DNA from: an uncultured Bacteroidales bacterium
Lineage (GTDB): Bacteria; Bacteroidota; Bacteroidia; Bacteroidales; UBA10428
Length of the DNA stretch: 64,000 nucleotides
Assembly: GCA_963808745.1 (NCBI GenBank)
Contig: CAWEGX010000019.1
Location: 10,212 to 74,211, forward strand
Reading direction: 5' to 3'
Part shown: piece by piece, positions 34,379 through 52,679 of the stretch
How positions within the stretch are numbered: the first letter of the stretch is position 1
Layout: each line of letters starts with the position of its first letter
Notes under the pieces: generated by a model
What the model was told of the DNA's origin: nothing
What the model saw: the letters and a program-made list of their open reading frames with translations, nothing else
Database searches by the model: none
Translations under genes and position numbers: made by a program

Positions 34379-35637
34379 ATGAAAATCAATACATTGTCAT
34401 TTATTTTATTATTATTTCTTTCCGGTTTTATTAATGCGCAGGACATCAGTGAATGGCGTGAAGAAAACCGGACCGGGGTTTCTGCAGAAACCGGACTGTT
34501 AAAATCCTGGCCTGCTGAAGGCCCAACCCTGCTTTGGTCCAATCTTGAGCTCACAAAAGGAAATTCATCGGCTTCCTTTGGAAAAAATAAAATCTATATA
34601 ACCGGATTGAAAGACGGGAACGATATACTTTATGCCCTGGACATGAATGGAAAGATTCTCTGGCAGACAGTTATGGGCAGGGCCTGGACGGATTCATACC
34701 CTGAAAGCAGGGCTACGCCGACTGTTGAAGGGAACATGGTATACACCTGCAGCGGATATGGTGATCTTGCCTGTATTGACGGAACCACCGGAAATATCAT
34801 TTGGTCGTATAAAGCCAGCGAACTGAACAAAGGCACTTATGGGAAGTGGGGCATTGCCGAATCGCTCCTGATCGATGGCGATAAGCTTTATTTTTCACCA
34901 GGAGGGCCTGAGACCATGACCATTGCCCTTAAAAAATCGACACGGGGAACTGATATGGAAATCTGAAAGTCTGAATGACAAGCCAGGATATGTTTCACCA
35001 ATCCTTATCAATTATGCAGGCAGGAAAATGATCGTAAATGTTTCCATGGGACATGTTTTTGCAGTTGATGCTTCAAATGGCGAAATTCTCTGGAAAGTCG
35101 CTCATACACAGTCAACTGATCCCAATATGGGGAGATTTGAACTTATTAAATGCACAACACCCTTATACAATGAAGGTATGGTGTATGTAACCGGAGGTTA
35201 CGACACCGGGGGAATGATGATCAGAATGGCTGCTGATGGAAAGAGCGCAAAAGTAGCCTGGACCGACCAGGTATCTGGATGATCACCATGGAGGTGTTGT
35301 GCTTGTTAACGGATGTATCTACGGTTCAAACTGGGTGAATAACGGCACAGGCAACTGGTGCTGCATTGATTGGAATACCGGGGAAAAAAAGTGGGAACAA
35401 CGCTGGAACTGTAAGGGCTCTATTATATCTGCCGAGGGTATGCTTTATATCTACGATGAAAAAAATGGAAATGTAGGACTGGTGAGGGCTACTCCTGAAA
35501 AATTCGATCTTGTCAGCAGCTTTAAGGTTACCCAGGGAAGTTCAGGGCCATTCTGGGCACATCCCGTAATCCATGACGGTGTTCTTTATTTAAGGCACAG
35601 TAATGCTTTAATGGCTTATGATATTAAGGCAAAATAA
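34379..35637 (+). pseudogene. PQQ-like (BamB/PQQ_2-type) beta-propeller repeat protein P1, secreted; two frame changes
   Basis: Signal peptide, then EWREENRTGVSAETGLLKSWPAEGPTLLW. Blades such as LACIDGTTGNIIW and WCCIDWNTGEKKW. ORFs 34379-34966, 34923-35282 and 35299-35637 join at ~34945 (KKSTGELIWKS) and ~35270 (LDDHHGGVVLVNG). Confidence 0.7.
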
Positions 35638-35714
35638 ACTAATTTGGAATGCAAAACAGAGGCGGGATATTCTAATCCATTACCATATTGTTCAGCAAAA
35701 AACTGAGAGGAGTA

Positions 35715-37046
35715 ATGAAAATGAAAAAGAGTCGTGCCTGTATTCCCATGATTTTCCTGATGGTTTGCATGGCAAATGTTTATGCACAAGACTGGCCGCA
35801 GTATCTTGGGCCCAACAGAAACAGCATATCACCCCAGAAGGGTATCTTGCGTTCCTGGCCTGAAAAGGGACCTGAAGTTCTGTGGACTGCCAGTCTGGGT
35901 ATCGGTTATGGCGGACCTGTTGCGAAGGATGGGAAGGTGTTTTTGCTGGACAGGGATGACCAGGTTGGAGATATGCTGAAGTGTTTTGACCTCTCCGATG
36001 GAAAGGAACTCTGGAATTTTGCTTACAATGCTCCCGGATCGGTAATGTTTCCGGGCTCGCGCAGTGTGCCGGCTATGGACGGCAATTATGTTTATTCCTG
36101 CGGACCTTACGGTGACCTGTATTGCATTGATATCAACACGCACAAACCCGTTTGGAATAAGAATGTCTGGACTGACTTCGGCGGAGCTGAAATTCCGAAA
36201 TGGGCCATAGCACAGTGTCCCCTGGTTTACGGCGATTTGCTCATATTGGCATCACAGGCACCGCAGGCAGGTGTTGTGGCCTACGAAAAGCTCACGGGAA
36301 AAGTCAAATGGTCAACCCCGTCTCTCGGGGAGGTCGGATATGTTACCCCGGCCATGGTAAAAGTTGGCAGTGAGGATCATGTTGTTATGATAACCGCTTC
36401 AGCCGGAGGCGGTTTTGGCAGAACCGGCAGCGGTGGCAAGGTAGTTGGCATTGATCCGCACTCGGGGAAAATCCTGTGGGAGTATACAAACTGGCAATGC
36501 CGTATTCCCGCGCCCTGTGCAATTGATGCCGGTGATAGCCGGATACTGATAACAGGCGGATACGAAGCGGGTGCGTCCTTGATAAAAGTCGGGAAAAAGG
36601 CCGATGGCACCTATGAGGTCACAGAACTTTACAAAAATGCCGATTTTGGTGCTCATACACAGCCCCCGGTCCTGTATAACGGCTTTTTTTATGCTCAATA
36701 TTCCACCAACGAAAGAAAAGACGGTATGGTTTGTATGAGTATTGACGGCCAGATCAAATGGAAAACCGGGAGGGAACCCCTTTTTGATAAGGGGGGGATG
36801 ATCGTCGCCGATGGATTGCTGCTCAGCACAGATGGAATGAATAAGTTATTCCTTATTGAGCCCGATCCTTCAGCCTTTAAAATATTAGCATCAGCTGAAC
36901 TGCTGAAAGAAGGAGGAGTAAGCAGTGACCCTATGGCTTCAAGAGCAGGTGGCTCAACCCAAAACTGGGCACCGATAGCACTTGTGGATGGAAGGATTCT
37001 TATTAGGGATCAGAACCGGTTATTGTGTGTTAAAGTTGCCCAATGA
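35715..37046 (+). CDS. PQQ-like beta-propeller repeat protein P2, secreted
   Basis: Signal peptide MKMKKSRACIPMIFLMVCMANVYAQ, then DWPQYLGPNRNSISPQKGILRSWPEKGPEVLW. Blades LYCIDINTHKPVW and VCMSIDGQIKW. Confidence 0.8.
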   Translation: MKMKKSRACIPMIFLMVCMANVYAQDWPQYLGPNRNSISPQKGILRSWPEKGPEVLWTASLGIGYGGPVAKDGKVFLLDRDDQVGDMLKCFDLSDGKELWNFAYNAPGSVMFPGSRSVPAMDGNYVYSCGPYGDLYCIDINTHKPVWNKNVWTDFGGAEIPKWAIAQCPLVYGDLLILASQAPQAGVVAYEKLTGKVKWSTPSLGEVGYVTPAMVKVGSEDHVVMITASAGGGFGRTGSGGKVVGIDPHSGKILWEYTNWQCRIPAPCAIDAGDSRILITGGYEAGASLIKVGKKADGTYEVTELYKNADFGAHTQPPVLYNGFFYAQYSTNERKDGMVCMSIDGQIKWKTGREPLFDKGGMIVADGLLLSTDGMNKLFLIEPDPSAFKILASAELLKEGGVSSDPMASRAGGSTQNWAPIALVDGRILIRDQNRLLCVKVAQ

Positions 37047-37063
37047 TTTAGACGTAGCAACCA

Positions 37064-38497
37064 ATGAAATCACGTTTAGAACGACTGATTATCCCGTTAA
37101 CCATTTTCGCTGGTTGCTGCGTTTTATTCTATTGGCTGTTTTACAATCCGGTTAAAGATCTCCATGAAGCAATCCCCGGATCCGACAAACGGCCCGCAAT
37201 CTTAGCATCCTCAGGCGATTCCGTGATCATTGGTGAAAAATTCACTTCCTATGTTGCAGCTTTTGAGACCCATCTTGCAGGCAAGTGGCCGAATTTCAGG
37301 GGAACTGATTTTGACAACATCAGCAAGGAAACTACAAGGCTGATTGACCACTGGCCGCCAGGAGGTCCGAAGATATTGTGGAAAAAGCCCTTGGGTGAAG
37401 GACACGCGGCAGCGGCCATTTATAACGGAAGAGTATATGTACTCGATTACGATGAACGAAAAAAAACGGATGTACTGCACTGTTATTCGCTTGCTGATGG
37501 CACAGAACTCTGGCGCCGCTGGTATTCAGTGGATATAAAACGAAACCATGGTATGTCGCGCACGATCCCTGCAGTTAATGATAAATATGTGGTTACCATA
37601 GGTCCCCGCTGCCAGGTAATGTGCTGTGACGCCATTACCGGAGATCTGATCTGGGGGATTGACCTTGTAAGGAAATTCAGAACCGCCGAACCACTCTGGT
37701 ACACGGGTCAGTGCCCGCTGATCGATAACAATATTGCGGTAATTGCCCCGGGAGGCAGGGCATTGCTGATGGGTGTAGATTGTGCCACCGGAAAGATCGT
37801 TTGGCAGACACCCAATTCCGACAGCGTAAAAATGTCGCATTCCTCCGTGGTTCCCATGACCATAGCAGGAAAAAAAATGTACGTGTATAATGCACTGGGT
37901 GGACTTTGCGGAATTTCGGCAGAAGAAAATGATAAAGGACGTCTTTTGTGGAAAACCAGGGATTTCAACCCGTCTGTCATTGCCCCCTCTCCTATGCATG
38001 CCGGCGGGAACAAGATTTTTGTTACTGCCGGATATGGCGCAGGCGCTGCCCTGTTCCAGGTAAACAGAACCGGTGACTCTTATTCGGTGCAAAAACTGCA
38101 ATCATTTAAGCCATCAGAGGGTATGTCCTCCGAACAACAGACTCCAATTTACAGGAATGGATTCGTATACAACATTCAGAGTAAAGACGCCGGTACCTCC
38201 CGTAATCAGTTTGTCTGCTGCGCACCTGATAATTTTAAGAATATTCTTTGGACCAGCAATACCACAGAGCGTTATGGCCTTGGACCTTACATTATTGCGG
38301 ACAACAAGTTCTATATATTGAGTGACGAAGGAGAACTGACCATTGCCCGGTACAGCACATCAAAATTTGAGGTCCTTGACAAGACCAGAATTATTAAGGA
38401 TGGCCAGGATGCATGGGGCCCGCTGGCTATTGCCGATGGCATGCTTGTAATGCGCGACTCAAAGCAAATGGTTTGTATAGATCTGAAAGCCAATTAA
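37064..38497 (+). CDS. PQQ-like beta-propeller repeat protein P3, N-terminal TM anchor
   Basis: TM helix LIIPLTIFAGCCVLFYWLF. WPNFRGTDFDNIS...WPPGGPKILW. Blades CCDAITGDLIW and VDCATGKIVW. Confidence 0.8.
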   Translation: MKSRLERLIIPLTIFAGCCVLFYWLFYNPVKDLHEAIPGSDKRPAILASSGDSVIIGEKFTSYVAAFETHLAGKWPNFRGTDFDNISKETTRLIDHWPPGGPKILWKKPLGEGHAAAAIYNGRVYVLDYDERKKTDVLHCYSLADGTELWRRWYSVDIKRNHGMSRTIPAVNDKYVVTIGPRCQVMCCDAITGDLIWGIDLVRKFRTAEPLWYTGQCPLIDNNIAVIAPGGRALLMGVDCATGKIVWQTPNSDSVKMSHSSVVPMTIAGKKMYVYNALGGLCGISAEENDKGRLLWKTRDFNPSVIAPSPMHAGGNKIFVTAGYGAGAALFQVNRTGDSYSVQKLQSFKPSEGMSSEQQTPIYRNGFVYNIQSKDAGTSRNQFVCCAPDNFKNILWTSNTTERYGLGPYIIADNKFYILSDEGELTIARYSTSKFEVLDKTRIIKDGQDAWGPLAIADGMLVMRDSKQMVCIDLKAN

Positions 38498-38504
38498 CCC
38501 CGTG

Positions 38505-39494
38505 ATGAAGCAAAAAATAATCATCGGATGCTCGGTAGCTTTGCTGCTTTTAGCGGTCTTTCTGATTGCCCGCGACCTGTTTCACCATTCCCCGACTCAA
38601 ACCGAAGCCACCTGTTGCGGGGATGATTTCGCCAGACTTAAACAAATTGATACCTCACTCCTGGGATATAAAAGGGTCAGCCTTGTCAGGACCAACTTAC
38701 AGGACCTTTCAGGAATTGCCCTGGATGACAGTCAGAATGTATATGTCTGTGGCAACAGGCAGGTAAGTGTTTTTAATGCCGGCGGCAAAAGAACCGGGGG
38801 GTTTAAGACCGATTCGATGGCCGGATGTATTGCTGTTCATGGCAGCGATCTTTACCTTGGCATGGGACCGGGAATAGCTCATTACACTATTCATGGTGAT
38901 CAGGCGGCATTTTGGAAAGCCTATAATGCCAATGGCGTTATTACCTCCCTCACCACGCATGGTGACCAGGTTTACGCTGCAGATGCTTTTAGCAAACGGG
39001 TCCTGAAGTATGAAAAGGATGGCAGATTCATACAGGAAATCGGAAAGAAGGACACCCTCACAGGTTCAATGGGTTTTGTCATACCGAGTTTATATTTTGA
39101 CATAGCATTTGGCGCTTTTAATGACCTTTGGGTGGTTAACCCGGGAAAACTGAGTGTTGAGAATTATACCCCGACGGGGTATCTGCAATCGGCCTGGGGT
39201 AAAGCATCATTTGAAAACAATGGCTTTACCGGTTGCTGCAATCCGGCACATATGGCCGTTTTGCCCGACGGTAATTTTGTAACGTATGAGAAGGGCATTG
39301 ACAAGATTAAGGTATTTGATCCCACAGGCCAGTTTGTATGTATGGTAGCCGGAGCAGGCAGTTTTAAAGGAAATGCCGATTTTCAACTGGGCAAAATTGA
39401 CCTGGTAAAGGATATTGCTTCCGGTTCGGACGGCAGGATTTATGTTTTGGATGCCTATAACCAGATCAATGTTTTTGAGAAAACAGAATATTAA
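38505..39494 (+). CDS. NHL-repeat six-bladed propeller-like protein, N-terminal TM anchor
   Basis: TM helix IIIGCSVALLLLAVFLIA. NHL-like repeats (GIALDDSQNVYVCGNRQVSVFN; DKIKVFDPTGQFV; DGRIYVLDAYNQINVFE). Vicinal Cys pairs in ATCCGDD and FTGCCNPAH. Confidence 0.65.
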   Translation: MKQKIIIGCSVALLLLAVFLIARDLFHHSPTQTEATCCGDDFARLKQIDTSLLGYKRVSLVRTNLQDLSGIALDDSQNVYVCGNRQVSVFNAGGKRTGGFKTDSMAGCIAVHGSDLYLGMGPGIAHYTIHGDQAAFWKAYNANGVITSLTTHGDQVYAADAFSKRVLKYEKDGRFIQEIGKKDTLTGSMGFVIPSLYFDIAFGAFNDLWVVNPGKLSVENYTPTGYLQSAWGKASFENNGFTGCCNPAHMAVLPDGNFVTYEKGIDKIKVFDPTGQFVCMVAGAGSFKGNADFQLGKIDLVKDIASGSDGRIYVLDAYNQINVFEKTEY

Positions 39495-39505
39495 GCATTA
39501 AGCAT

Positions 39506-40066
39506 ATGGACGAAGCTAAAAAAATGAAGAGAAGGGACTTTCTCAATACGGGCATCAGGCTGGGTATTGGGGCCGGATTGGGAGCCATTGCCGTAGGTCT
39601 TACCTCCAGGGCCGTATCAGGTCAGACCATCTGGCAGCTCGACCCATCGAAGTGCGTGCAGTGCGGCAATTGTGCAAAATCCTGTGTATTGCAGACATCA
39701 GCCGTAAAGTGCGTGCATGTTACCGATATGTGCGGGTATTGCGATTTGTGCAGTGGTTACCTTCATGCAGGTACCAAGGAGCTGAATACGGCAGCTGAAA
39801 ACCGGCTTTGCCCTACCGGTGCAATTGTAAGGACTTATGTGGAAGAGCCTTATTTCGAATACAAAATTGTGGAAGAATTGTGTAATGGCTGCGGTAAATG
39901 CGTAAAGGGCTGCGGATCATTTGGCAATGGTTCACTGCAACTTCAGATTCAGCAGAAACTTTGCCTGAACTGCAACCAATGCGCTATAGCCAGGTCATGT
40001 CCTTCTGAGGCATTCAGCCGGGTTGATCACAAAACCCCATATCTTCTGAAAGGGTTTGAAGGTTAA
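39506..40066 (+). CDS. Tat-exported poly-[4Fe-4S] ferredoxin (NapG/NosG-like)
   Basis: Twin-arginine signal KRRDFLNTGIRLGIGAGLGAIAVGLTS. Cys motifs CVQCGNCAKSC, CGYCDLC, CPTGAI, CNGCGKCVKGC and CLNCNQCAIARSCP. Confidence 0.8.
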   Translation: MDEAKKMKRRDFLNTGIRLGIGAGLGAIAVGLTSRAVSGQTIWQLDPSKCVQCGNCAKSCVLQTSAVKCVHVTDMCGYCDLCSGYLHAGTKELNTAAENRLCPTGAIVRTYVEEPYFEYKIVEELCNGCGKCVKGCGSFGNGSLQLQIQQKLCLNCNQCAIARSCPSEAFSRVDHKTPYLLKGFEG

Positions 40067-40121
40067 AAAAAATAAGATCCGGATTTATGAATCATATAAA
40101 CGAAACCAATATAAAGTAACC

Positions 40122-41414
40122 ATGAAGCGCAAGGCCCAATTTTTTACGCTGATGTTGGTTATTTCCCTGCTGGCCTATAATGTGCTCGCTATCCAGAGAT
40201 TCCCCAAGCCTGAATTTGAAAGCGGGTATAAAGTTCCTGCCACGCAGGTAACCAGGGTGCAACACGTAATTTTTGAATACATGGACCTTGTTGTATTTAT
40301 AGGCTGCATGTCACTGATCACCTGGATTATTCTGAAAAAACGTTCACGTAAGGCTGTATTCTGGATCTCGGTTTTCTCATTGCTGTATTTCGGATTTTAT
40401 AGAAAGGGCTGTATTTGTCCCGTCGGATCACTGCAAAATATTACCATGGCGCTGTTCAACCCCCATTACAACATACCTGTTACAGCGATTGCTTTTTTTG
40501 TAATTCCTTTGGGTTTTACCCTGTTTTTTGGACGTACTTTTTGCGCCGGTGTTTGCCCGTTGGGAGCCATACAGGATCTGTTTGCGCTCCGGCCTGTGAG
40601 CCTTAAACCCTGGATCAGATATCTGCTTGGACTTATTCCGTTCATTTACCTGGGCCTGGCAGTATTGTATGCTGCCACCGGCACGGACTTTATTATCTGC
40701 CGGTATGATCCGTTTGTCGGCTTTTTCAGGCACAATGGCACATCCCTTATGTTTGTCATCGGCGGTGTTTTATTACTGACCGGTATCTTTATTGCCCGAC
40801 CCTATTGCCGGTTCTTTTGCCCCTACGGTGTTCTGCTCAACCTGGTCAGCCGCGTTTCACGCCGACATTTGTCCATTGCCGACGGAAAGTGTATCAACTG
40901 CAAATTATGTGAAAATGCATGCCCCTATGATGCCATTGATAAGCCCACCGGCCTTGGTGCAAAAAACGACAACAGGGAACTTGTTAAAAAGCTGATAGTC
41001 TATGGTTTAATAACACCACTGCTGGTTGTTTTAACCGGATGGACCGTATCAAAATATCACGCTGAGTTTTCACACGTGAATTTTAAGGTCAGGCTTGCTC
41101 AGGAAATGATGACTCAGTCTGCAAATGCTGAAACCGGTATTGTTCCTGTTGAAGTTACTACCTTCAAATCTTCGGGTGTGCCGGTTGAAAATCTTTATAA
41201 GGAAGCGGCTGCCATTGTTCAGAAATTTTACACAGGAAGTTGGATTATAGGTTGTTTCATCGGCCTGGTTTTCGGATTGACTCTTGCAAGGCTCACCATA
41301 TTCAGGTACCGGAATGAATACCTGGCCAATAAAGGGAATTGTTATAGCTGTGCAAGGTGTCTGGAGTATTGTCCCGTGAAAAAGGGACCGGGGACCGGGG
41401 TTAGGGATTGGTAG
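40122..41414 (+). CDS. integral-membrane Fe-S protein (NapH/NosH/MauN/RdhC-like polyferredoxin)
   Basis: Multiple TM helices. CICP, FCAGVCPLG and YCRFFCPYG (CxxxCP) motifs, plus CINCKLCENACP and C-terminal CYSCARCLEYCP ferredoxin motifs. Start taken at ATG 40122 because the track start at 40056 is TTG. Confidence 0.75.
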   Translation: MKRKAQFFTLMLVISLLAYNVLAIQRFPKPEFESGYKVPATQVTRVQHVIFEYMDLVVFIGCMSLITWIILKKRSRKAVFWISVFSLLYFGFYRKGCICPVGSLQNITMALFNPHYNIPVTAIAFFVIPLGFTLFFGRTFCAGVCPLGAIQDLFALRPVSLKPWIRYLLGLIPFIYLGLAVLYAATGTDFIICRYDPFVGFFRHNGTSLMFVIGGVLLLTGIFIARPYCRFFCPYGVLLNLVSRVSRRHLSIADGKCINCKLCENACPYDAIDKPTGLGAKNDNRELVKKLIVYGLITPLLVVLTGWTVSKYHAEFSHVNFKVRLAQEMMTQSANAETGIVPVEVTTFKSSGVPVENLYKEAAAIVQKFYTGSWIIGCFIGLVFGLTLARLTIFRYRNEYLANKGNCYSCARCLEYCPVKKGPGTGVRDW

Positions 41415-41577
41415 ATTGCGCGGAGCGCATACGGTATTGAAGAATTGCAGATGGAAGATTGAAGATGGAAGATCCTTGCGCGGAGCGCATACGGTATTGT
41501 AGAAGAATGATGAATTATTAATGATGAATTGCGCGGAGCGCGTCACAATCGTAAATCGTAAATCGTAAATTCAAATA
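41415..41577 (+). repeat. intergenic repeat block: 3 x TTGCGCGGAGCGC(ATACGGTATTG) units plus short tandem repeats
   Basis: Units at 41416-41439, 41476-41499 and 41529-41547, each with a TGCGC-GGA-GCGCA mini-hairpin. aatcgta x3 at 41547-41567. gaagat and atgatgaatt reiterations. Confidence 0.85.
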
Positions 41578-43380
41578 ATGACCACAGAAGTCAGACAATA
41601 CAAATATGGAAGCGACCGGTTGTGGAACCGTATCGCAGTGGTGGCAGGCATTTTTGCCCTGCTGATCTGTGTTTTGCTGGTGGCCAATTACATCCAGGTA
41701 AAAAAATCCGACCCTGTTAACATGACAGTCATTAACACTCTGGTGGAAAGACTTTATGAAAATCCTGCCGATTCAGCATTGCGAAAAGAAATCAGAACAC
41801 TCGACCTGCTATCGCGCAAAGCCTATTTTACCAGTCAGTGGCAGATACGTACCGGTGGTTATCTTTTGCTGGCATCGATAGCTTTAATGATCATATCATT
41901 ACAGGTTGTCGAATACAGGAGAAAAATATCCCCGGTTCTGTCCACGGATACCGTAGATGAAACCATGCTCCAGAACCGGAAAGCCCGGAAGTGGATAGTG
42001 ATGGGCGGAGGTGTCATTTTGCTGACTGCTGTGGTTTTTGGCGTACTCTCCTCTAATGACCTGGCAGACAAGTTCAACAGCCTGAGCGGGGGAAACGGGG
42101 GCTCTTTTGAACAGGATATTGAGGCCGGGGATATTACCGTGACAGACCTGGCAGCCGGCACCCCGGATACTGCCAATGGCCCGGCAGGAGCAGCGGAAAC
42201 AGCAGATACGGCAGTTGCTGCTCCGGCCGGATCAACGCCGGCAGTCAGCACCGACAATTTCCCCAATTTCAGGGGTACAGGAGGGGTTGGCATAGCATCA
42301 AAAAGAAATATTCCTGTCAGCTGGGATGGAAAAGCAGGTACAAATGTCCTGTGGAAAGCCGCTATTCCTTTACCCGGTCATAACTCACCCATAGTATGGG
42401 GTGACCGGGTTTTTATTGCAGGTGCCAATGGCAGCAAACAGGAGGTTTATTGCTACGATCGCAATAATGGAAAAATACTTTGGACCACCCCGGTGGGAAC
42501 AGGCACTAAAAAGCCGAAAGTTTCCGAGGAAACCGGATTCGCTGCCCCGACTGCAGTTACGGATGGCACCGGAGTTTATGTCATATTTTCAACGGGTGAT
42601 ATTGTCGGAATTGATATGAATGGCAAAAAGATCTGGGAAAGAGACCTCGGGCTGCCTGAAAATTATTACGGACATTCTTCTTCATTAATGCTATATAATG
42701 GAAGTATCATTGTTCAATTTGATCAGCGATCCTCCCAGAAGATAATGGCCCTCTCTGTAAAAACCGGAAAAAACGTCTGGAGCACCGATCGCCAGTGTAA
42801 AATTTCATGGTCATCACCCATTGTGGTAAATACAGGCAAAAAGACAGAAATAATTACGGTGGCGGAGCCCAATGTGACAGCCTATGATCCGGCAAACGGG
42901 GCAGAATTGTGGAAGATCGAATGCATCAGCGGAGAGGTGGGACCATCGCCTGCATATGCCAACGGGATCGTTTTTGCGGTAAATGATTATTCAAAACTAA
43001 GCGCGATCAGGCTGGGCGATCAGCCAACCCTTTTATGGGAAAATAACGAATTCCTTTCGGATATTCCCAGTCCGGTTGCCACAGACAAGTACCTGTTTAT
43101 TGCAACCAGCTATGGAATGGTTGCCTGTTATGATGCTGTAACCGGACAGAAATACTGGGAAAAGGATTTTGGCAAAAGTATATATTCCTCACCCATGATC
43201 GTTGAAAACAAGGTGTATGTCCAGGACATTACAGGTATAATGCACATTTTCAGTGCAGGCAAAGAATTCAAATTAATCGGTGAGTCAAAGCTCGGTGAGT
43301 ATTCAGCAAGCACCCCTGCATTCACAAACGGAAGAATTTATATCCGCGGGGAAGAGAACCTTTATTGTATTGGAAAATGA
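41578..43380 (+). CDS. PQQ-like beta-propeller repeat protein P4 with 3-TM N-terminal domain and Ala/Thr/Pro-rich linker
   Basis: TM segments IAVVAGIFALLICVLLVANYI, GGYLLLASIALMIISLQVV and WIVMGGGVILLTAVVFGVL. Linker GTPDTANGPAGAAETADTAVAAPAGSTPAV. NFPNFRGTGGVG...NVLW and blades VYCYDRNNGKILW and VACYDAVTGQKYW. Confidence 0.8.
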   Translation: MTTEVRQYKYGSDRLWNRIAVVAGIFALLICVLLVANYIQVKKSDPVNMTVINTLVERLYENPADSALRKEIRTLDLLSRKAYFTSQWQIRTGGYLLLASIALMIISLQVVEYRRKISPVLSTDTVDETMLQNRKARKWIVMGGGVILLTAVVFGVLSSNDLADKFNSLSGGNGGSFEQDIEAGDITVTDLAAGTPDTANGPAGAAETADTAVAAPAGSTPAVSTDNFPNFRGTGGVGIASKRNIPVSWDGKAGTNVLWKAAIPLPGHNSPIVWGDRVFIAGANGSKQEVYCYDRNNGKILWTTPVGTGTKKPKVSEETGFAAPTAVTDGTGVYVIFSTGDIVGIDMNGKKIWERDLGLPENYYGHSSSLMLYNGSIIVQFDQRSSQKIMALSVKTGKNVWSTDRQCKISWSSPIVVNTGKKTEIITVAEPNVTAYDPANGAELWKIECISGEVGPSPAYANGIVFAVNDYSKLSAIRLGDQPTLLWENNEFLSDIPSPVATDKYLFIATSYGMVACYDAVTGQKYWEKDFGKSIYSSPMIVENKVYVQDITGIMHIFSAGKEFKLIGESKLGEYSASTPAFTNGRIYIRGEENLYCIGK

Positions 43381-45725
43381 CAGATAATCTGGAATATAAG
43401 GTCGACAATCTGGTTCAGGAAATAGGGTCCACTCCCGATAAGGTTATTCCTATTCTTCAGGCTATTCAGAAGGAGTTTAATTACCTTCCCGAAGAAGCCC
43501 TGAAAAGGGTTTGTGAAACAACTTCCATACTGCCTTCGTCCATCCATGGCATCGCAACATTCTATTCCCAGTTCAGGCTCAAACCGGTTGGAAAACACAT
43601 TGTAAAGGTGTGTGTTGGCACTGCCTGTCATGTGAAAGGTTCCATGCTTGTATATGAGGCTTTTCAACGGGCACTTCACCTGGAAGGAAAAGAGGATACG
43701 GATTCAAAAATGCTGTTTACCATGGAGAAGGTTGCCTGCCTCGGCTGTTGCACCCTTGCCCCGGTTGTTCAGATAGATGAAGTAACCTATGGCCATGTGG
43801 GTACAGAGCAGGCAGATGAGATCCTGCAGGATTTTTTGAACAGGAAGCATCATTCTGTGGTTTCCAAATCCTCTGTTTCACTTAAAACCAGGGCTTCGCA
43901 GGGTGAAGTGCGCATTGGTCTCGGATCATGCTGTATTGCCAGCGGAAGCCAGGCCGTAAAACTGGCGCTGGAGGAAGCTTTAGAGCAAACCCATATCAAT
44001 GTTCAGGTTAAGCAGGTAGGTTGCGTAGGCATTTGTAACCAGGTGCCTGTTCTTGAAATCCATAAAGAAGGAGAATCACCCGCCATATATGCCAAAATCA
44101 AACCTGAAGAGGTAAGGGAGGTAATCAAACATCACTTCAGCCCCGTTAATCTGGCCGACAAAGCCAAAGCCGGTGTCTACAATTTTTTTGACACCCTGGT
44201 AAACAGGGAAATTCCAAGATCGCTCACCTATTACAATCCTGAAAAGAAAGATACGCTGTTTTCGGAATTTCTTTCGTCGCAGGTAAGCATTGCCACGGAA
44301 TTCAGGGGGGAACTGAAACCGGGAGATCTGAATGAATACCAATCCAAAGGAGGCTTCAGTGCCCTGCATACATGCCTGCACAAATCAAATCCCGCGGAAG
44401 TAATTTCCATCATCAGCAACAGTGGACTGAGGGGCAGAGGGGGAGCCGGTTTCCCTACCGCATCAAAATGGAAACTGGTTAACCATGCAAAAGCGGATGT
44501 CAAATATGTGATCTGCAACGGAGATGAAGGCGATCCCGGCGCTTTCATGGACCGCATGCTGCTTGAGTCGTATCCGTACAGGATCATAGAGGGTATGATG
44601 ATTGCTGCCTATGCCACCGGGGCAAGCGAAGGCATTTTTTATATCCGTGCAGAATATCCGCTTGCAGTAAAGCGAATTCGTGAGGCCATCGCCTTGTGCA
44701 AACAGGAGGGATTGCTGGGGACCGGTATCTTGAATAGTTCATTTGCCTTTGATATAAGCATTTTTGAAGGAGCGGGGGCATTTGTGTGCGGCGAGGAAAC
44801 AGCCCTGATCGCCTCTATTGAAGGGAAACGGGGACTGCCCACCATGCGTCCACCCTACCCGGCTGAAAAAGGCCTGTGGGGTAAGCCAACCCTTATCAAC
44901 AATGTGGAAACCCTGTCGCTTGTTTCATGGATCATCCGACACGGCGATGAGGCATTTCAGAAAATCGGCACTCCCAACAGCAAAGGCACCAAGGTTTTTG
45001 CCCTTGCAGGAAAAATAAACCGCGGCGGATTGATTGAGGTGCCCATGGGTATCACCATCCGGAAAATTGTTGAGGAAATCGGAGGGGGAGTTCCCAACGG
45101 ACGCACCTTTAAAGCCATTCAGATAGGCGGTCCTTCCGGAGGCTGTATTCCCGCATCAATGGCGGATATCCCCATTGACTATAACTCACTTAAGGAAGCA
45201 GGGGCCATGATGGGATCAGGAGGGCTCATCGTACTGGATGATACTGATTGCATGGTTGATATTGCCAGGTATTTCCTGTCCTTCACACAAAACCAGTCGT
45301 GTGGCCGATGCACATTCTGCAGGATCGGTACCACCCGCATGCTGCAGATACTCGATAAGATATGCTCCGGAAAGGGAACCGAAACCGATCTGGGCCTGCT
45401 GGAAGAGCTGGCACACAGCACCAAAACCGGAAGCATGTGCGGACTGGGCAAGTCGGCCCCAAATCCGGTCCTGACCACCATCCGGTATTTCCGGGAGGAA
45501 TATATGGCACATATTAACGGGCATTGTCCGACCGGGAAATGCAAGAATCTGATCACCTATACCATCACGGAAGATTGTATTGGGTGTACCAAATGTGCCC
45601 AGCGGTGCCCATCCCAGGCTATTGAAGCAAAACCCTATGAGGTGCATGTGGTTGACAATGAAAAATGTATTAAATGCGATATATGCAGGGAGGTTTGTCC
45701 TGTGCAGGCTGTAATTACCCGTTAG
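43377..45725 (+). CDS. NuoE-NuoF fusion flavoprotein (HydC/HydB-, HndA/HndC-like) with extra thioredoxin-like and 2x[4Fe-4S] domains
   Basis: NuoE-like VCVGTACHVKG...CLGCCTLAPV. Second Trx-like Fe-S segment GLGSCCIASG...GCVGICNQVPV. NuoF motifs GRGGAGFPTASKW, ICNGDEGDPGAFMDR, SCGRCTFCRIG and MCGLGKSAPNP. C-terminal CIGCTKCAQRCP and CIKCDICREVCP. The ATG overlaps the upstream stop (ATGA at 43377-43380). Confidence 0.85.
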   Translation: MTDNLEYKVDNLVQEIGSTPDKVIPILQAIQKEFNYLPEEALKRVCETTSILPSSIHGIATFYSQFRLKPVGKHIVKVCVGTACHVKGSMLVYEAFQRALHLEGKEDTDSKMLFTMEKVACLGCCTLAPVVQIDEVTYGHVGTEQADEILQDFLNRKHHSVVSKSSVSLKTRASQGEVRIGLGSCCIASGSQAVKLALEEALEQTHINVQVKQVGCVGICNQVPVLEIHKEGESPAIYAKIKPEEVREVIKHHFSPVNLADKAKAGVYNFFDTLVNREIPRSLTYYNPEKKDTLFSEFLSSQVSIATEFRGELKPGDLNEYQSKGGFSALHTCLHKSNPAEVISIISNSGLRGRGGAGFPTASKWKLVNHAKADVKYVICNGDEGDPGAFMDRMLLESYPYRIIEGMMIAAYATGASEGIFYIRAEYPLAVKRIREAIALCKQEGLLGTGILNSSFAFDISIFEGAGAFVCGEETALIASIEGKRGLPTMRPPYPAEKGLWGKPTLINNVETLSLVSWIIRHGDEAFQKIGTPNSKGTKVFALAGKINRGGLIEVPMGITIRKIVEEIGGGVPNGRTFKAIQIGGPSGGCIPASMADIPIDYNSLKEAGAMMGSGGLIVLDDTDCMVDIARYFLSFTQNQSCGRCTFCRIGTTRMLQILDKICSGKGTETDLGLLEELAHSTKTGSMCGLGKSAPNPVLTTIRYFREEYMAHINGHCPTGKCKNLITYTITEDCIGCTKCAQRCPSQAIEAKPYEVHVVDNEKCIKCDICREVCPVQAVITR

Positions 45726-45726
45726 A

Positions 45727-47340
45727 ATGATCCATCTTAAAATAGACCATATCGACATACAGGCCGAAGAAGGCACTACCGTGCTGGAGGCAGCGAGGCA
45801 GGCTGGTATCATAATACCTTCCATGTGCCATATGAAGGGATATGGTAATCATCCCGCCTGCATGGTATGCCTTGTAAAAGATAATAAGTCCGAAGCCATT
45901 GTTCCATCCTGCTCGCTGAAAGTAACTCCCGGCATGGATATCATTGCCAGCGATGAAGAAGTGATGACCGCCCGCAGGCAGGCCCTGGAACTGCTTCTCA
46001 GTGACCATGCAGGTGATTGTGAAGCACCCTGCAGCCTGGCATGTCCCGCCGGAATGAACATTCCCCTGATGAACCGGCTTATTGGTGAAGGAAGGTTCAC
46101 CGAGGCACTCAGCGTAGTTAAGGATGATATAGCCCTGCCCTATGTGCTGGGTTATATTTGTCCGGCCCCCTGCGAAAAAGCCTGCCGGCGCAAACAGATT
46201 GATGACGCCGTGTCGGTATGCCTTTTAAAACGATTTTCTGCAGCGGCCGGCATTGATCAGAAATCAATCTCCGCTTCCCGAAAGTTGAATACTCCTTCCC
46301 CGGGCGTTACCAAAAAAGTAGCTGTCATTGGCAGCGGCCCTGCCGGATTGGCAGCAGCCTATTACCTGCAATTATACGGACACGTATGCACCGTATTCGA
46401 TAAAGCTCCGGAGCCCGGTGGCACGCTTCGTTACAGCATACCAGAAGAGGAACTGCCCAAAAACATTATTGACCGGGAGGTTGAAATAATCCGGTCGATG
46501 GGAGCAACCTTTCGTTTTAATGCACCTGTCACCGAACAAATATTCAACGCTGAGATAAAAGGCGCCTATGACGCTGTTGTTATTGCCACAGGCGATATAA
46601 CTATTGATAACAGCCTGGTAAACCTCATTGCTGTTTCAAAATCAGGATACCAGGTGAATGAAAAGAATATGAGCTCATCCGTGCCCGGCATCTACGTTTG
46701 CGGAAGCGCAATCAGGCCACATAAAATGGCTGTGCGATCTGTAGCCCAGGGCAAGACAGCAGCTGACGCAATTCATCAATACCTGCAGGCACAACCGTTT
46801 GAAAAACCCGGAAAGATGTTCAACTCCAGGTTTGATAAACTGTTGCCGGTTGAATTTGAAGAATACCTGAAGGAATCATCACGATCAGGCAGAGTCCTCC
46901 CGGGGGCAAAGACTGAGGAGGGCTTTTCACCGGATGAGGCCGTCAGGGAAGCCCTGCGATGTTTGCATTGTGACTGCCGCAAACAGGATAACTGTAAACT
47001 CAGGATTTACAGCAATGAATACCATATTGACCGCAGGCACTATATGGTCGGTGACCGCAAGGCGATGACCAAACAAATGCAGCATGACCTGATTATTTAT
47101 GAACCTGAAAAATGCATTAAGTGCGGATTATGTGTTGAGATCAGCAGCCTGGAGGGTGAAAAATTCGGGATGGCATTTGAAGGCAGGGGATTTGATGTTG
47201 TTGTCAATACCCCTATAGGAATTAACTTCAGTGAGGGTTTGACGCATACCGCAGTAAAATGTGCCGCGGCCTGTCCCACGGGAGCACTGGCACTAAGGGA
47301 CAAGTATGCAAATATTCATCTAAATAAGCAGACAAAATGA
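45727..47340 (+). CDS. chimeric Fe-S flavoprotein: NuoG/HydA-type N-terminal [2Fe-2S] + GltD-like Fe-S/FAD domain + NuoG-like [4Fe-4S] C-terminus
   Basis: N-terminal HLKIDHIDIQAEEGTTVLEAARQAGIIIPSMCH...CMVC. GltD-like CEAPCSLACPAGMNIP...YICPAPCEKACRR and VAVIGSGPAGLAAAYYL...FDKAPEPGGTLRYSIP. GIYVCGSA. C-terminal CLHCDCRKQDNCKL and CIKCGLC...CPTGAL. Confidence 0.75.
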   Translation: MIHLKIDHIDIQAEEGTTVLEAARQAGIIIPSMCHMKGYGNHPACMVCLVKDNKSEAIVPSCSLKVTPGMDIIASDEEVMTARRQALELLLSDHAGDCEAPCSLACPAGMNIPLMNRLIGEGRFTEALSVVKDDIALPYVLGYICPAPCEKACRRKQIDDAVSVCLLKRFSAAAGIDQKSISASRKLNTPSPGVTKKVAVIGSGPAGLAAAYYLQLYGHVCTVFDKAPEPGGTLRYSIPEEELPKNIIDREVEIIRSMGATFRFNAPVTEQIFNAEIKGAYDAVVIATGDITIDNSLVNLIAVSKSGYQVNEKNMSSSVPGIYVCGSAIRPHKMAVRSVAQGKTAADAIHQYLQAQPFEKPGKMFNSRFDKLLPVEFEEYLKESSRSGRVLPGAKTEEGFSPDEAVREALRCLHCDCRKQDNCKLRIYSNEYHIDRRHYMVGDRKAMTKQMQHDLIIYEPEKCIKCGLCVEISSLEGEKFGMAFEGRGFDVVVNTPIGINFSEGLTHTAVKCAAACPTGALALRDKYANIHLNKQTK

Positions 47341-48471
47341 TGATTGGTAACCGGCAAACGGTAAAAGTTCTTGTTTTGTTGGCCGCCCTGGTGCTTCCTG
47401 CCAGGATCTCAGCTCAGAATATGACCAATTCCTGGCCTATATTCCGCGGTGACCAGGGATTGAACGGAAATACTGCGGCTGTCATTCCCAAATCACCGAA
47501 AGTGGCATGGGTCTCAAAAATGGCAGGTGGTACCAAATCTTCCCCGGTCATTGGCAATAACTGCGTTTTTATCGGATCTGACGATGGTGTATTATATTGC
47601 CTTTCCCTTGCGGGCAAATCAAACTGGACATTTAATACCGGCCATGCCATCGAAGCCCCTCCCATGGTCAGCGACAATACGGTCTATATTGGAACGCTTG
47701 AAGGGGAATTGTTTGCCGTGGATATTAAAACAGGTAAGAAACGCTGGATGTATCAGACAGAGGGTCAGATTTCCGGATCGCCCAACTATTTCATGTCTGG
47801 AACATCCAAAAAGATTATTGTCGGCAGCTATGATTATTCTTTGCATTGTATAGATGATGCCACAGGAAAATCCGATTGGAAATACACATCGGATAATTAT
47901 ATTAATTGTGCGCCGGCCGTTTCAGGCAAAGTAACCGTTTTTGGCGGTTGCGACGGCAACCTCCATGTAGTTAACCTTGCCACCGGCAAGGTGAATTACA
48001 AGATTAACATGGGCACCTATATCGCGTCATCCAGCACGTTATCGGGTAACCAGGCCTTTCTTGGCGACTATGACGGGCAATTTTTTTGTGTGGATTACAT
48101 GACGAAAAAACTGGTGTGGGAACAGTCCGGCGGAGGATCTTTTGTTTCATCCCCTGCAGTATCAGGAAGCCATGTAGTTATCGGCTCAGAGAACCGGATT
48201 GTTTTTTGCTATAACAAGGCAGATGGCAAGGTACTCTGGCGGTTCAAAACCCTGGGGAAAATAACGGGATCTCCTGTCATTGCAGGAAACAAGGTGGTTA
48301 TTGCTGCCGGAGACGGCAGACTTTATATAATTGATCTGAAAACCGGAACCAAAAGCTGGACATATGAACTGGGCAGTCCTTCGAGCAGCACGCCGGCTGT
48401 TGTCACAAAACCTGCTGGTGATCGCTACCGATGATGGCCGTATTTTTGGTTTTAATCTTATTCAAAAATAG
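47337..48471 (+). pseudogene. PQQ-like beta-propeller repeat protein P5, secreted; frame change at an A4 run near the 3' end
   Basis: Signal peptide VLVLLAALVLPARISAQ. WPIFRGDQGLNG. Blades LYCLSLAGKSNW, LHCIDDATGKSDW and FFCVDYMTKKLVW. After acaaaacc (~48408) the natural C-terminus NLLVIATDDGRIFGFNLIQK* is in the next frame. The ATG overlaps the upstream stop (ATGA at 47337-47340). Confidence 0.75.
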
Positions 48472-48472
48472 G

Positions 48473-48878
48473 ATGGCTGATCAAATTTCCAAACATATCC
48501 TTTTCTGCCACTGCGGAGGAGAGAGGATCCATCCGGGTTACCCGGTTTGGTTACCGGGCATCTGAAAAAATTACCCGTTGAGGTTACGGGATTGTCTGAT
48601 CTCTGCGGATTAGCAGCAAAAAGTAGTGGTTTGCTAACAGATCTGTTCAACAGGGATACTGAATACCTTGTTCTCGGGTGCTATCCGCGCATATTTCGCC
48701 CGGATTGCTTACGGAAATAGACAGGAGCATCCATATGGCCATGGGTTATCTTACAAAACACCAATCTTCCAGAGTTGCCTGGCTCCCCCTCTGGTTCGGC
48801 AACCAGCTGGCCACGGATAAAACTAACCCGGTATATGGAACCGCCAAGGTTTGCATATATCACGGTCACGTTAAATAA
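48473..48878 (+). pseudogene. degraded Cys-rich small ORF(s); function unknown
   Basis: ATG lies 2 nt after the P5 stop. The product MADQISKHILFCHCGGERI... continues in other frames as LKKLPVEVTGLSDLCGLAAKSSGLLTDLFNRDTEYLVLGCYPR, and then as ...AWLPLWFGNQLATDKTNPVYGTAKVCIY...*, which ends 1 nt before the GTPase ATG. Confidence 0.3.
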
Positions 48879-48879
48879 A

Positions 48880-49974
48880 ATGATAGCTATGACTCAATTA
48901 ATATTTGTTGGCGGATTCCTTGGTGCCGGTAAGACAACCCTGCTTCATGAAGTAACACGCAGGCTGATTTCGAAAGGCACACGGGTAGGGCTCATTACCA
49001 ACGACCAGGCACCTGACCTGGCTGATACCGCTTTGCTTAAACATGACTATGTGAATGTTGCCGAAGTGACCGGAAGCTGTTTCTGCTGCGATTTTAAAGG
49101 ATTACGCAGGGCCATCGACAATGTTGGCCAACACCTGAAAACCGATATAATTATTGCAGAACCCGTCGGCAGCTGCACCGATTTATCGGCTACACTCGTC
49201 AATCCCATTAAAGAAATGATGAAAACAGAGGTTTCGGTGTGCCCCCTCACTGTTTTGGTGGATCCCGGGCGATTAAAGGACATCCTGGATGGAGGAACGA
49301 CAGGCCTGCATCCTGCGGCGGCCTATATTATTAAAAAGCAACTTGAAGAGAGTGATATAATTGCCATTACAAAATCCGATCTATATGAATCCGCTGAAAT
49401 CACTGAATTATCCCGAAGGCTGAAAGAAAACTTTCCGGATTGCGAAATCAGGGCCATCAGTGCCAAAACCGGTGAGGGCATTGATGACTGGCTGGAATAT
49501 GTATTAAAAGGTGAAGATGCCGGTAAACACATCGTGGAAATTGATTATGACAAATATGCCGAGGGGGAAGCGGTACTGGGCTGGCTTAACTGTTCCGCTT
49601 CATTGTCAGGCCATGAAACAGACTGGGATGTCTTTACACGCGAATTTATGCAGGCTCTGGCGGCAGAATTTGATGCCAATGGCACACCCGTAGGACATGT
49701 GAAAATGATTGTGGAAAACGGGGATCAGTACATTTCCTCCAATTTAACCGGCCATGCAGAAACGCTCACGTTCAGATGGTCTGCCGGTTCAGGCAACCAG
49801 GCGGAAATGATCGTGAATGCCCGCGTACAGATGTCGCCAAAGGACCTGGAACAGGTATTTTTAAGTACACTGGAGTCCATAACAAAGGACCGGATAAAAA
49901 CCCGGATCAACAGAATCAGGAGTATAAGCCCCGGATATCCAAACCCCACACACAGATATAAGAATAGAGTCTAA
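48880..49974 (+). CDS. G3E-family P-loop GTPase (CobW/HypB/UreG-type metallochaperone-like)
   Basis: P-loop GGFLGAGKTTLL. Cys motif GSCFCC. IIAEPVGSCTDL, and ITKSDL (NKxD-like). The start MIAMTQL at 48880 is preferred over the track start at 48775. Confidence 0.75.
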   Translation: MIAMTQLIFVGGFLGAGKTTLLHEVTRRLISKGTRVGLITNDQAPDLADTALLKHDYVNVAEVTGSCFCCDFKGLRRAIDNVGQHLKTDIIIAEPVGSCTDLSATLVNPIKEMMKTEVSVCPLTVLVDPGRLKDILDGGTTGLHPAAAYIIKKQLEESDIIAITKSDLYESAEITELSRRLKENFPDCEIRAISAKTGEGIDDWLEYVLKGEDAGKHIVEIDYDKYAEGEAVLGWLNCSASLSGHETDWDVFTREFMQALAAEFDANGTPVGHVKMIVENGDQYISSNLTGHAETLTFRWSAGSGNQAEMIVNARVQMSPKDLEQVFLSTLESITKDRIKTRINRIRSISPGYPNPTHRYKNRV

Positions 49975-50013
49975 GTATATAATGATTATATTGCATTGAT
50001 AAAAACCTTCTAA

Positions 50014-51261: not shown

Positions 51262-51278
51262 AAAAGCCAGCCGTTTCT

Positions 51279-52589: not shown

Positions 52590-52679
52590 TCACAATTAAA
52601 ATTTATAAACATGAAAAGCTACTCTATTATCAATTCTGATTTGTATTATTTATTTTCAAAATATATCAAACCCCTTAAA

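Follow-up and report, generated by a model that had tools for sequence, protein, structure and literature searches.

A NapGH-like iron-sulfur protein pair of an uncultured Bacteroidales bacterium lies in a conserved gene set with a NuoEF-type module and propeller proteins: a candidate heme-free electron-export system

NapH-like proteins are seen as modular building blocks for electron transfer across the membrane (Meheust et al., 2021, PMC8238504). NosR, RdhC/PceC and the NapH-like proteins that occur with NirS or ExaA share the Fer4_5/CX3CP module and form a conduit to varied periplasmic enzymes, including ExaA of the pyrroloquinoline quinone (PQQ) type (PMC8238504; Buttet et al., 2018, PMC5928378). 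In the NapGH pair of Escherichia coli (b2205/b2204), the gene of a four-cluster ferredoxin with a twin-arginine translocation (Tat) signal stands directly 5' of the gene of the membrane protein, and NapGH, NosGH and MauMN have no cytoplasmic electron-input enzyme of their own. Here we analyse a pair of this layout in a stretch of 64,000 nucleotides (the window) from an uncultured Bacteroidales bacterium of the GTDB lineage UBA10428 (GenBank assembly GCA_963808745.1, contig CAWEGX010000019.1, forward-strand positions 10,212 to 74,211). The two genes, at 39506-41414 of the window, encode a NapG-like and a NapH-like protein and belong to a fixed gene set present in about 60 species-level genomes which, unlike the described pairs, has its own fused NuoE-NuoF protein (NuoEF) and a StnC-like flavoprotein (GltD-prime). 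The set is made of known kinds of parts newly combined, with the layout of NapGH/NosGH and the concept of the NapH-like conduits, and no description of it was found in open-access papers and bioRxiv. On balance, the pair probably forms the membrane-crossing part of a self-contained system for electron export without hemes, in which electrons would pass from NADH through flavins and iron-sulfur (Fe-S) centers to periplasmic propeller proteins.

The two genes of the pair are the following.

39506-40066, + strand: NapG-like periplasmic poly-ferredoxin of 186 aa, Tat-exported (RR signal), with 16 Cys in four [4Fe-4S] motifs.
40122-41414, + strand: NapH-superfamily membrane Fe-S protein of 430 aa, with two Fer4_5 stretches, a CX3CP core and a split ferredoxin domain.

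An earlier note on this DNA had described a Tat-exported protein with about four [4Fe-4S] motifs, followed 55 nt later by a multi-transmembrane protein, and both open reading frames (ORFs) are indeed found at these positions. The ATG at 40122, which lies exactly 55 nt past the NapG-like stop, is most likely the start of the NapH-like gene because the homologs align from it; the ORF list also holds an alternative TTG upstream, at 40056. The NapG-like ORF opens with the twin-arginine signal KRRDFLN and a hydrophobic stretch, and continues with four complete Cys motifs: CVQCGNCAKSC, CGYCDLC...CP, CNGCGKCVKGC and CLNCNQCAIARSCP. The RR pair and each of the 16 Cys are conserved in 95% or more of 74 orthologs. 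The combination of a Tat signal with four [4Fe-4S] motifs is that of NapG/MauM, and local identity to the NapG of E. coli is 23%. For assignment to families, scores were compared with the Pfam gathering thresholds and the curated cutoffs of NCBIfam. The NapG-like protein matched only generic Fer4 in Pfam and generic ferredoxin models in NCBIfam, where the NapF model gave 18.8 bits and the NapG/MauM model (TIGR00397) gave no match at E <= 0.01.

The NapH-like protein contains two Pfam Fer4_5 stretches (PF12801; 60.5 bits against a cutoff of 22) together with generic 4Fe-4S domains, which places it in the NapH superfamily. Its CX3CP motifs are CAGVCP and CRFFCP, and its ferredoxin motifs are CINCKLCENACP and, at the C terminus, CYSCARCLEYCP. 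CX3CP motifs and two CxxCxxCxxxCP motifs had been recognized before, but the terminal ferredoxin motif then counted as additional is the second of the two. These motifs are separated by an insertion of about 138 aa with two transmembrane helices, whereas in the NapH of E. coli they lie about 20 aa apart. An exhaustive HMMER profile search gave 499 clusters of 50% identity whose representatives match the protein at E <= 1e-30, and no fewer than 150 of these match over the full length at E < 1e-100. All 15 conserved Cys, scored on 141 representatives of the 50%-identity clusters, were present in 96-100%. Three of them, C97 and C99 (GCxC after the third helix) and C193 (ICRYDPF), are invariant and absent from E. 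coli NapH. The Cys motifs of the pair are far beyond chance, since the RR signal and the Cys are conserved across divergent orthologs; a lack of such conservation would, according to the earlier note, have refuted its reading.

The topology of the NapH-like protein was predicted from hydropathy, the positive-inside rule, the helices of an AlphaFold2 (AF2) model and the alignment to E. coli NapH. Its eight hydrophobic segments would comprise a signal-like first transmembrane helix, a conserved periplasmic segment (RFPxPxF), a second helix, the NapH-type four-helix core, and a helical hairpin between the first ferredoxin motif and the second, both of them cytoplasmic. The two CX3CP motifs are predicted at the cytoplasmic ends of the core, and GCxC and C193 at the periplasmic ends. 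The sidedness of the Fe-S motifs thus comes out as cytoplasmic for the CX3CP and ferredoxin motifs of the NapH-like protein, and as periplasmic for the NapG-like protein. The four-helix core and both CX3CP motifs, which face the cytoplasm, align with those of E. coli NapH (27% identity over 185 aa), and each protein has two ferredoxin motifs toward its C terminus. The NapH-like protein differs by the signal-like first helix, the extra second helix, the periplasmic N-terminal segment, the three Cys on the periplasmic side and the insertion with two transmembrane helices, so that its ferredoxin motifs are not adjacent as in the NapH/MauN pattern.

A Tat poly-ferredoxin beside a Fer4_5/CX3CP membrane protein amounts to the NapGH-type electron-delivery architecture that had been proposed for the pair, although the NapH-like protein stays below the cutoffs of the named families: 42.5 against 213.05 bits (TIGR02163) and 38.8 against 234 bits (NF007013) for NapH/MauN, and 24.4 against 1000 bits for NosR/NirI (NF046105). 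It has no Pfam match to FMN_bind, the periplasmic flavin mononucleotide (FMN) domain of NosR/NirI, and plasmid-borne NosR and NapH genes are 24-32% identical to it over at most 62% of its length. RdhC/PceC proteins are defined by an FMN-binding domain, six transmembrane helices and two CX3CP motifs, without C-terminal Fe-S motifs, and by a place beside rdhA (PMC5928378); here the FMN-binding domain is absent, ferredoxin motifs are present, and RdhA is not nearby. A sequence search of the PDB found generic ferredoxin domains only, and a Foldseek search of the PDB with the AF2 model gave no match at E <= 0.001.

To see what accompanies the pair elsewhere, one genome per species (GTDB species representatives) was scanned. 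A NapH-like relative was found in 469 genomes, and the best 80 loci were compared; gene-order fractions count in the denominator only loci with enough flanking DNA. Nearly all of these 80 belong to Bacteroidales, among them cultured Labilibaculum, Ancylomarina and Marinifilum. The NapG-like gene stands directly upstream of the NapH-like gene in 64/76 loci, and the other recurrent neighbors in the main block of the window are listed below.

37064-38497, + strand: PQQc, an eight-bladed PQQ-like propeller with an N-terminal transmembrane anchor, recognized by ortholog conservation and its AF2 model; upstream of the NapH-like gene in 59/68 loci.
38502-39494, + strand: NHL-type propeller (Pfam NHL), transmembrane-anchored, with the vicinal-Cys motif GF.GCCNP; upstream in 63/72 loci.
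41578-43380, + strand: PQQd, a PQQ_2-type propeller with an anchor of three transmembrane helices, universal partner of the NapH-like protein; directly downstream in 71/76 loci.
43377-45725, + strand: fused NuoE-NuoF of the BfuC-BfuB/HydC-HydB type (Pfam 2Fe-2S_thioredx, Complex1_51K, NADH_4Fe-4S, Fer4_21); downstream in 60/64 loci.
45727-47340, + strand: GltD-prime, a StnC/NfnA-like Fe-S flavoprotein with a NuoG-type [2Fe-2S] plus a His-ligated cluster, a GltD Fe-S/FAD (flavin adenine dinucleotide) domain and further C-terminal clusters; downstream in 55/59 loci.
47337-48434, + strand: PQQe, a secreted PQQ_2/BamB-like propeller and member of the conserved set; downstream in 51/57 loci.

The genes at 34379-48434 form a same-strand block with intergenic gaps of -16 to 55 nt, except for 163 nt before PQQd. 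From PQQc through the NapH-like gene the gaps are 4-55 nt, with the NHL gene 4 nt after the PQQc gene and 11 nt before the NapG-like gene, and a terminator-like hairpin (48533-48545) lies 3' of PQQe. The pair had been called an orphan. In fact, nap, nos, rdh and mau catalytic genes are absent from the 64-kb window and from the surroundings of about 85 homologous loci, and none of the homologs compared stands beside a known reductase of these families, but the pair belongs to a conserved gene set; the NHL propeller upstream and the transmembrane-anchored PQQ-like propeller downstream, correctly reported as neighbors, are conserved partners rather than incidental ones. The fused NuoE-NuoF and GltD-like genes (43377-47340), the periplasm-side C97, C99 and C193, and the gene set as such had been overlooked. 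With respect to Nap, napA, napB and napC are absent here, and the place that the quinol pool has in Nap is taken by an NADH module. NosZ, NosD and NosL domains, expected of a NosGH system, occur neither in the window nor in related loci, and no protein of the cluster has a CxxCH heme c motif. Among the clustered unassigned ORFs of 83 loci there were only lineage-specific flanking genes, with no further conserved neighbor such as a cytochrome, molybdoenzyme or hydrogenase. The DsrMKJOP/Hme-type complexes of sulfate reducers share the concept of redox chemistry connected across the membrane by a Tat-exported periplasmic poly-ferredoxin together with a membrane subunit and an Fe-S protein of the cytoplasm; they differ in their unrelated membrane subunits (NrfD and heme-b types), in having hemes, and in having neither an NADH module nor propellers.

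Beyond Bacteroidales, the comparison reaches distant lineages in which the NapH-like protein and PQQd are naturally fused. Such fusions, of about 1000 aa, occur in at least ten representative clusters (P0248, P0264, P0277, P0280, P0295, P0323, P0332, P0348, P0358 and P0368); residues ~10-420 are the NapH-like part, and the PQQd part is 35-36% identical to the PQQd of the window over its whole length. The contigs that bear them (loci L085-L089) are GC-rich (57-64%) and have polysaccharide hydrolases as neighbors, and their core genes are 29-58% identical to those of the window (51-58% for the NapG-like protein). In L086 and L087 the order is NapG-like (54%), fusion, NuoEF (55%), GltD-like (39%), ATP-binding cassette (ABC) ATPase, FtsX (27%, full length), a PQQe copy of 32% identity, and an ArsP-type permease; in L088 it is NapG-like, fusion, NuoEF and GltD-like, and in L089 NHL, NapG-like, fusion and NuoEF. 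The fusion gene overlaps NuoEF by 4 nt in L086 and L088, and the junction agrees with the predicted topology: NapH C terminus inside, three transmembrane helices, propeller outside. From their sequences, the NapH-like protein and PQQd appear to act as one unit, and the fusions fix its stoichiometry with the periplasmic partner. The comparison thus reduces the invariant nucleus to the NapG-like protein, the NapH-like protein and PQQd, with NuoEF and GltD-like almost always present; NHL, PQQe, ABC/FtsX and the ArsP-type permease often join it, and PQQc, a family 4 glycosyltransferase (GT4) and extra propellers are lineage-level additions. As a separate observation, an 80-aa ORF directly 5' of the NapG-like gene in L089 (3380-3622, + strand) encodes a twin-arginine signal (RRDFF) and a short tail rich in Cys, CVNRGICRDCPQARDC; its product may be one more small exported protein of that lineage, able to bind an Fe-S center or a metal.

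The two proteins of the NADH module have no signal peptide. NuoEF comprises, in this order, the NuoE [2Fe-2S], a second [2Fe-2S], the FMN/NADH domain, the NuoF [4Fe-4S] and a C-terminal 2x[4Fe-4S], that is, the Bfu core of a NuoE-like and a NuoF-like part with an FMN/NADH site and C-terminal 2x[4Fe-4S]; the FMN/NADH motifs GRGGAGFP and CNGDEGDPGAF are conserved in its orthologs. Its likely start is the ATG at 43377, not the TTG at 43365, and the TGA stop of PQQd overlaps this ATG (ATGA). The closest solved relatives are 9bov_B, NfnB (9n5u_B) and StnB (8oh5_B), with E values of 1e-200 to 1e-210 covering residues 182-783. For GltD-prime they are 9bov_A, 8oh5_C and 9n5u_A (E 1e-70 to 1e-90). Its alignment to 9bov_A (~1175 aa) pairs residues 2-289 with 4-286 and then 274-522 with 419-672, so that about 130 residues in the GltD fold are skipped and the protein ends before the C-terminal ~500 residues, which form an FdhF-like domain; against both 9bov_A and 8oh5_C the alignment jumps from ~286 to ~419-425 of the target. 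Only about 125 aa lie between the GxGxxG for FAD and the C-terminal FAD motif, a second GxGxxG/A is absent, and the orthologs are equally short (514-537 aa).

In Stn, the NADPH pocket is formed by two Rossmann folds of the GltD region (PMC10482914). The NADPH Rossmann domain is missing from GltD-prime, and as both this domain and the FdhF-like domain are absent, the protein cannot be a Stn/Nfn transhydrogenase. NuoEF/GltD-prime reads instead as a BfuBC-type core whose large subunit has lost its soluble third substrate. The kinship with Stn/NfnABC and Bfu (8oh5, 9n5u, 9bov; PMC10482914, PMC9304861) extends to a core in which a NuoE-like part is joined by a NuoF-like part of the HydB type, with its extra [2Fe-2S] and C-terminal 2x[4Fe-4S], and, for the Stn/NfnABC large subunit, to a NuoG-type N terminus with an inserted GltD Fe-S/FAD fold, as in GltD-prime. 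In contrast to Stn/NfnABC, NuoE and NuoF are fused here and are encoded with membrane and periplasmic redox proteins. None of the passages retrieved from the Bfu survey (PMC9304861) concerns a version with NapH-like or periplasmic partners, and a NuoEF/StnC-type input module is reported with none of the NapH-like modular systems (PMC8238504, PMC5928378).

All propellers of the locus carry a signal peptide or a transmembrane anchor; there are seven propeller paralogs, two of them transmembrane-anchored. PQQc, 52-75% identical in the 59/68 loci that have it, is the most conserved propeller of the Bacteroidales cluster and is absent from some distant lineages. Its His/Cys motifs GEGHAA, KRNHG, GQCP and MSHSS precede successive predicted blades and are conserved only within Bacteroidales. 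The AF2 model of PQQc has a predicted local distance difference test score (pLDDT) of 89.3, and its nearest solved folds are tetrathionate hydrolase (template-modelling score 0.60-0.64) and BamB, with scores of 0.55-0.64 overall at 14-16% identity; a sequence profile also placed tetrathionate hydrolase first, with an E value of only 2e-4. Like PQQc, the tetrathionate hydrolase of Acidithiobacillus ferrooxidans (PDB 6l8a/7cqy) and BamB are periplasmic eight-bladed cofactor-less propellers of the PQQ_2 type. We regard the hydrolase link as a generic propeller match at this level of identity and keep it only as a weak hint. The GF.GCCNP motif of the NHL propeller is invariant in 68 orthologs; homologs in the GC-rich lineages are only 28-33% identical, yet they keep GCCNPA exactly. 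A His-rich metal site in PQQd was considered but is not supported, as no His or Cys is conserved across lineages. The BamB model (TIGR03300, cutoff 285) gave 27-145 bits with the propellers. NosR/RdhC-type systems have partners that can be recognized as enzymes, but none of the propellers here matches an enzyme family; moreover, those systems carry an ApbE-flavinylated FMN-binding domain, which the present set lacks, using a Tat-exported poly-ferredoxin.

Three more genes probably make up the export part of the system, encoded here on the opposite strand.

53965-57294, - strand: duplicated FtsX permease, 1109 aa (Pfam FtsX).
57272-58309, - strand: ArsP_1-type permease with the motif TPFCSCS (Pfam ArsP_1, PF03773; 229 bits against a cutoff of 32.3, hence a member of that family).
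58309-58977, - strand: ABC ATPase (NCBIfam LolD-like ATPase).

The ABC ATPase of the ABC/FtsX pair is found downstream of the NapH-like gene, on the same strand, in 38/51 Bacteroidales loci. The permease stays below the equivalog cutoffs of SaoE (111 against 325 bits) and of SO_0444, a Cu/Zn exporter (104 against 300 bits). CC and CSC motifs are discussed, in a preprint on the SaoE/SO_0444 families, as signatures of the handling of soft metals (10.1101/2022.07.06.499078).

How the electrons would move can be proposed from these parts. The intact NADH/FMN site suggests that NADH can be oxidized in the cytoplasm, the NapG-like ferredoxin and the propellers are predicted to lie outside the inner membrane, and the predicted topology places Fe-S motifs of the NapH-like protein in the cytoplasm and conserved Cys at either face of the membrane. 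We infer, as GltD-prime has no NADPH site, that NuoEF/GltD-prime would hand electrons over to the NapH-like protein at its cytoplasmic 2x[4Fe-4S] domain. A comparable docking is known for Wolinella succinogenes, where NapH binds the cytoplasmic Fe-S protein NapF via the first CX3CP motif (cited in PMC5928378). From there, electrons would traverse the membrane via the CX3CP four-helix core, arrive at the Tat-exported four-cluster ferredoxin, and reduce a substrate held or processed by the anchored propellers: PQQd, NHL and, in Bacteroidales, also PQQc. Transport of the substrate, a product or a metal into the periplasm is the probable task of the ABC/FtsX exporter and the CSC-bearing ArsP-type permease. 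Ferredoxin may be a second donor or acceptor, as the BfuBC type to which the input module belongs is a bifurcating one, and the system may then serve as an electron sink in fermentation or as a site of energy coupling.

The terminal substrate could be a thiophilic species, either a metal(loid) or sulfur, polysulfide or selenium; this is a tentative guess, prompted by the CC, CSC and GCxC motifs and by tetrathionate hydrolase as the nearest solved fold, and we rate it as rather doubtful. As to direction, we weakly favor a flow outward, to a thiophilic acceptor or to a redox-maintained Cys-Cys site.

Several observations weigh against an export system of this kind. For the NapH-like protein, AF2 gave a mediocre model (pLDDT 64.6), in which the surroundings of each Cys motif have low confidence. 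The iron counts of NosR cover two ferredoxin clusters only, and CX3CP may not bind Fe-S (PMC5928378). In PQQd, no signature of metal ligands or of a cofactor is conserved, hence no catalytic site was identified in it. In the distant locus L090 (JGI 3300010167 contig, 8021-13531), the only clear departure from the link with the NADH module, NHL, NapG-like, NapH-like and PQQd genes occur with no NuoEF/GltD-like genes within 10 kb, so that the NADH module is either not strictly obligatory or encoded elsewhere. Finally, NapH is considered a quinol dehydrogenase.

This last point leads to the alternative that survives best, in which the system is fed by quinol as in Nap: the NapH-like protein would oxidize menaquinol and pass electrons to the NapG-like protein and the propellers, and NuoEF/GltD-prime would merely be co-regulated (e.g., for NADH/ferredoxin balance) or would reduce quinone through the NapH-like protein. 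Quinol dehydrogenase activity has been assigned to NapH of E. coli and Wolinella (PMC5928378, PMC8238504), the CX3CP four-helix core is common to NapH, and L090 has NapGH-like genes with no NuoEF beside them. However, NuoEF and GltD-prime accompany the pair at the high frequencies given above (60/64 and 55/59 loci), also in distant lineages and with stop/start overlaps, and with the soluble third-substrate domain of the StnC-like protein lost, the only evident partner left is the cytoplasmic ferredoxin domain of the NapH-like protein. We therefore consider a quinol-fed system unlikely.

If NADH is the donor, as we prefer, the system might go further and be a membrane-spanning Bfu bifurcating enzyme, in which NADH electrons are split or combined between ferredoxin and a periplasmic acceptor via an all-Fe-S wire, with cofactor-less or Cys-Cys propeller reductases at its end. 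This extension is speculative, and we give it a small chance only.

Less probable than quinol feeding is a role in maintenance or maturation as proposed for NosR, in which the system would keep envelope parts (the NHL Cys-Cys, exported thiols, metals) reduced, or would aid the assembly of a metal center via the ArsP-type permease and ABC/FtsX. NosR is needed for the activation and upkeep of NosZ besides electron transfer (PMC5928378), and conservation of GCCNP goes together with that of the CSC permease and the MacB/Lol-like exporter, with CC and CSC among the soft-metal signatures already mentioned (10.1101/2022.07.06.499078). But an input module as large and costly as the Bfu type, and propeller paralogs that number up to seven in a locus, would suit bulk catalysis better than housekeeping, and a known metalloenzyme is absent from the set, which makes this role improbable.

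The reverse flow, with propellers that oxidize a low-potential periplasmic donor and NAD+ and/or ferredoxin reduced at the Bfu module, would turn the system into an uptake dehydrogenase. Bfu enzymes are reversible (PMC9304861), and NapH-like proteins also occur with periplasmic oxidases, e.g., PQQ alcohol dehydrogenases of the ExaA type (PMC8238504). Yet against a cutoff of 480 for the PQQ-dependent dehydrogenase model (TIGR03075), the propellers reach 78 bits at best and otherwise 25-45, PQQ chemistry as known is much too oxidizing for the reduction of NAD+, and the window and the compared loci hold no recognizable hydrogenase, formate dehydrogenase or similar low-potential oxidase, so that inward flow seems very unlikely. 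A transcriptional regulator, as suggested only by the name "NosR/NirI family transcriptional regulator" given to homologs at JGI (Joint Genome Institute), is most improbable, since Pfam finds no DNA-binding domain in this Fe-S protein with eight transmembrane helices, and the NosR/RdhC family itself has been reinterpreted as electron-transfer proteins (PMC5928378).

The remaining features around the set are two propeller genes at the 5' end of the block and a second block downstream.

34379-35637, + strand: first PQQ_2-type propeller (Pfam PQQ_2; tblastn), broken into three ORFs by two frameshifts.
35688-37046, + strand: secreted PQQ_2-type propeller with a signal peptide (Pfam PQQ_2, 76.8 bits), an accessory paralog of variable copy number.
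48775-53936, + strand: second block with a CobW-type GTPase, a PQQ_2 propeller, a GT4 glycosyltransferase and a PQQ_2 propeller (Pfam, NCBIfam).

The ORFs of the broken gene lie in frames 1, 2 and 3, and tblastn with an intact ortholog of 418 aa (L002, 4345-5601) covers its residues 20-188, 172-298 and 297-418; the gene is either a pseudogene or the product of an assembly indel error. In other loci, one to six PQQ_2 paralogs stand 5' of the core. The CobW/HypB/UreG-type GTPase (48775-49974, + strand) is preceded by a gap of 340 nt with the hairpin and gives 55 bits with the NCBIfam "CobW-related selenoprotein" model (cutoff 180). It is not counted as a member of the system, being absent from all other compared loci, and is treated as a local insertion. 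The GT4 protein (51279-52589, + strand), encoded downstream of the NapH-like gene in 25/51 loci, i.e., about half of those of Bacteroidales, has a conserved N-terminal PG.GG.FYCGNCLRD with a Cys pair (CGNC) that is unusual among GT4.

The rest of the window encodes glycoside hydrolases, sensor kinases, a peptidase sorted by the type IX secretion system and similar proteins, without enzymes for nitrate, nitrous oxide, organohalides or methylamine. A role in anti-phage defense was rejected, as PADLOC gave only one marginal match, in the FtsX region. In three metatranscriptomes of one study there were only short cross-matches to the conserved NuoF region. At 84-2609 (+ strand), a family 106 glycoside hydrolase (GH106), a rhamnosidase, is split into ORFs of 665 and 158 aa, and at 16185-18229 (+ strand) a hybrid sensor kinase/AraC regulator appears as three overlapping ORFs (HisKA, HATPase_c, Response_reg plus HTH); together with the broken propeller gene, these suggest assembly indel errors or several decaying genes. 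Two short overlapping ORFs at 60211-60967 (- strand), one with a Tat-like RRNFLN and a molybdopterin-binding MoCoBD_2 fragment, look like truncated or frameshifted remnants of a beta subunit of the aldehyde-oxidase/xanthine-dehydrogenase family. Type IX secretion sorting domains are present in a C10-family peptidase of 1391 aa with an I69 inhibitor domain (19418-23593, - strand) and in a second protein (29124-29843, + strand), which is consistent with the Bacteroidota origin of the window.

NapH-type proteins are widespread, and the subfamily described here offers a cleaner case than Nap, with a dedicated NADH donor and without hemes or a flavinylated domain. Its carriers are anaerobes of sediments, wetlands and stratified waters, and strains of Labilibaculum, Ancylomarina and Marinifilum are in culture. 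If the propellers are catalytic, they would represent a new kind of periplasmic reductase, and if the system is an electron sink or an energy-coupling site, models of redox balance in fermentative Bacteroidales would change. Were the membrane-spanning Bfu enzyme to prove real, fermentative Bacteroidales and other anaerobes would have a heme- and quinone-independent, energy-conserving electron sink in the periplasm.

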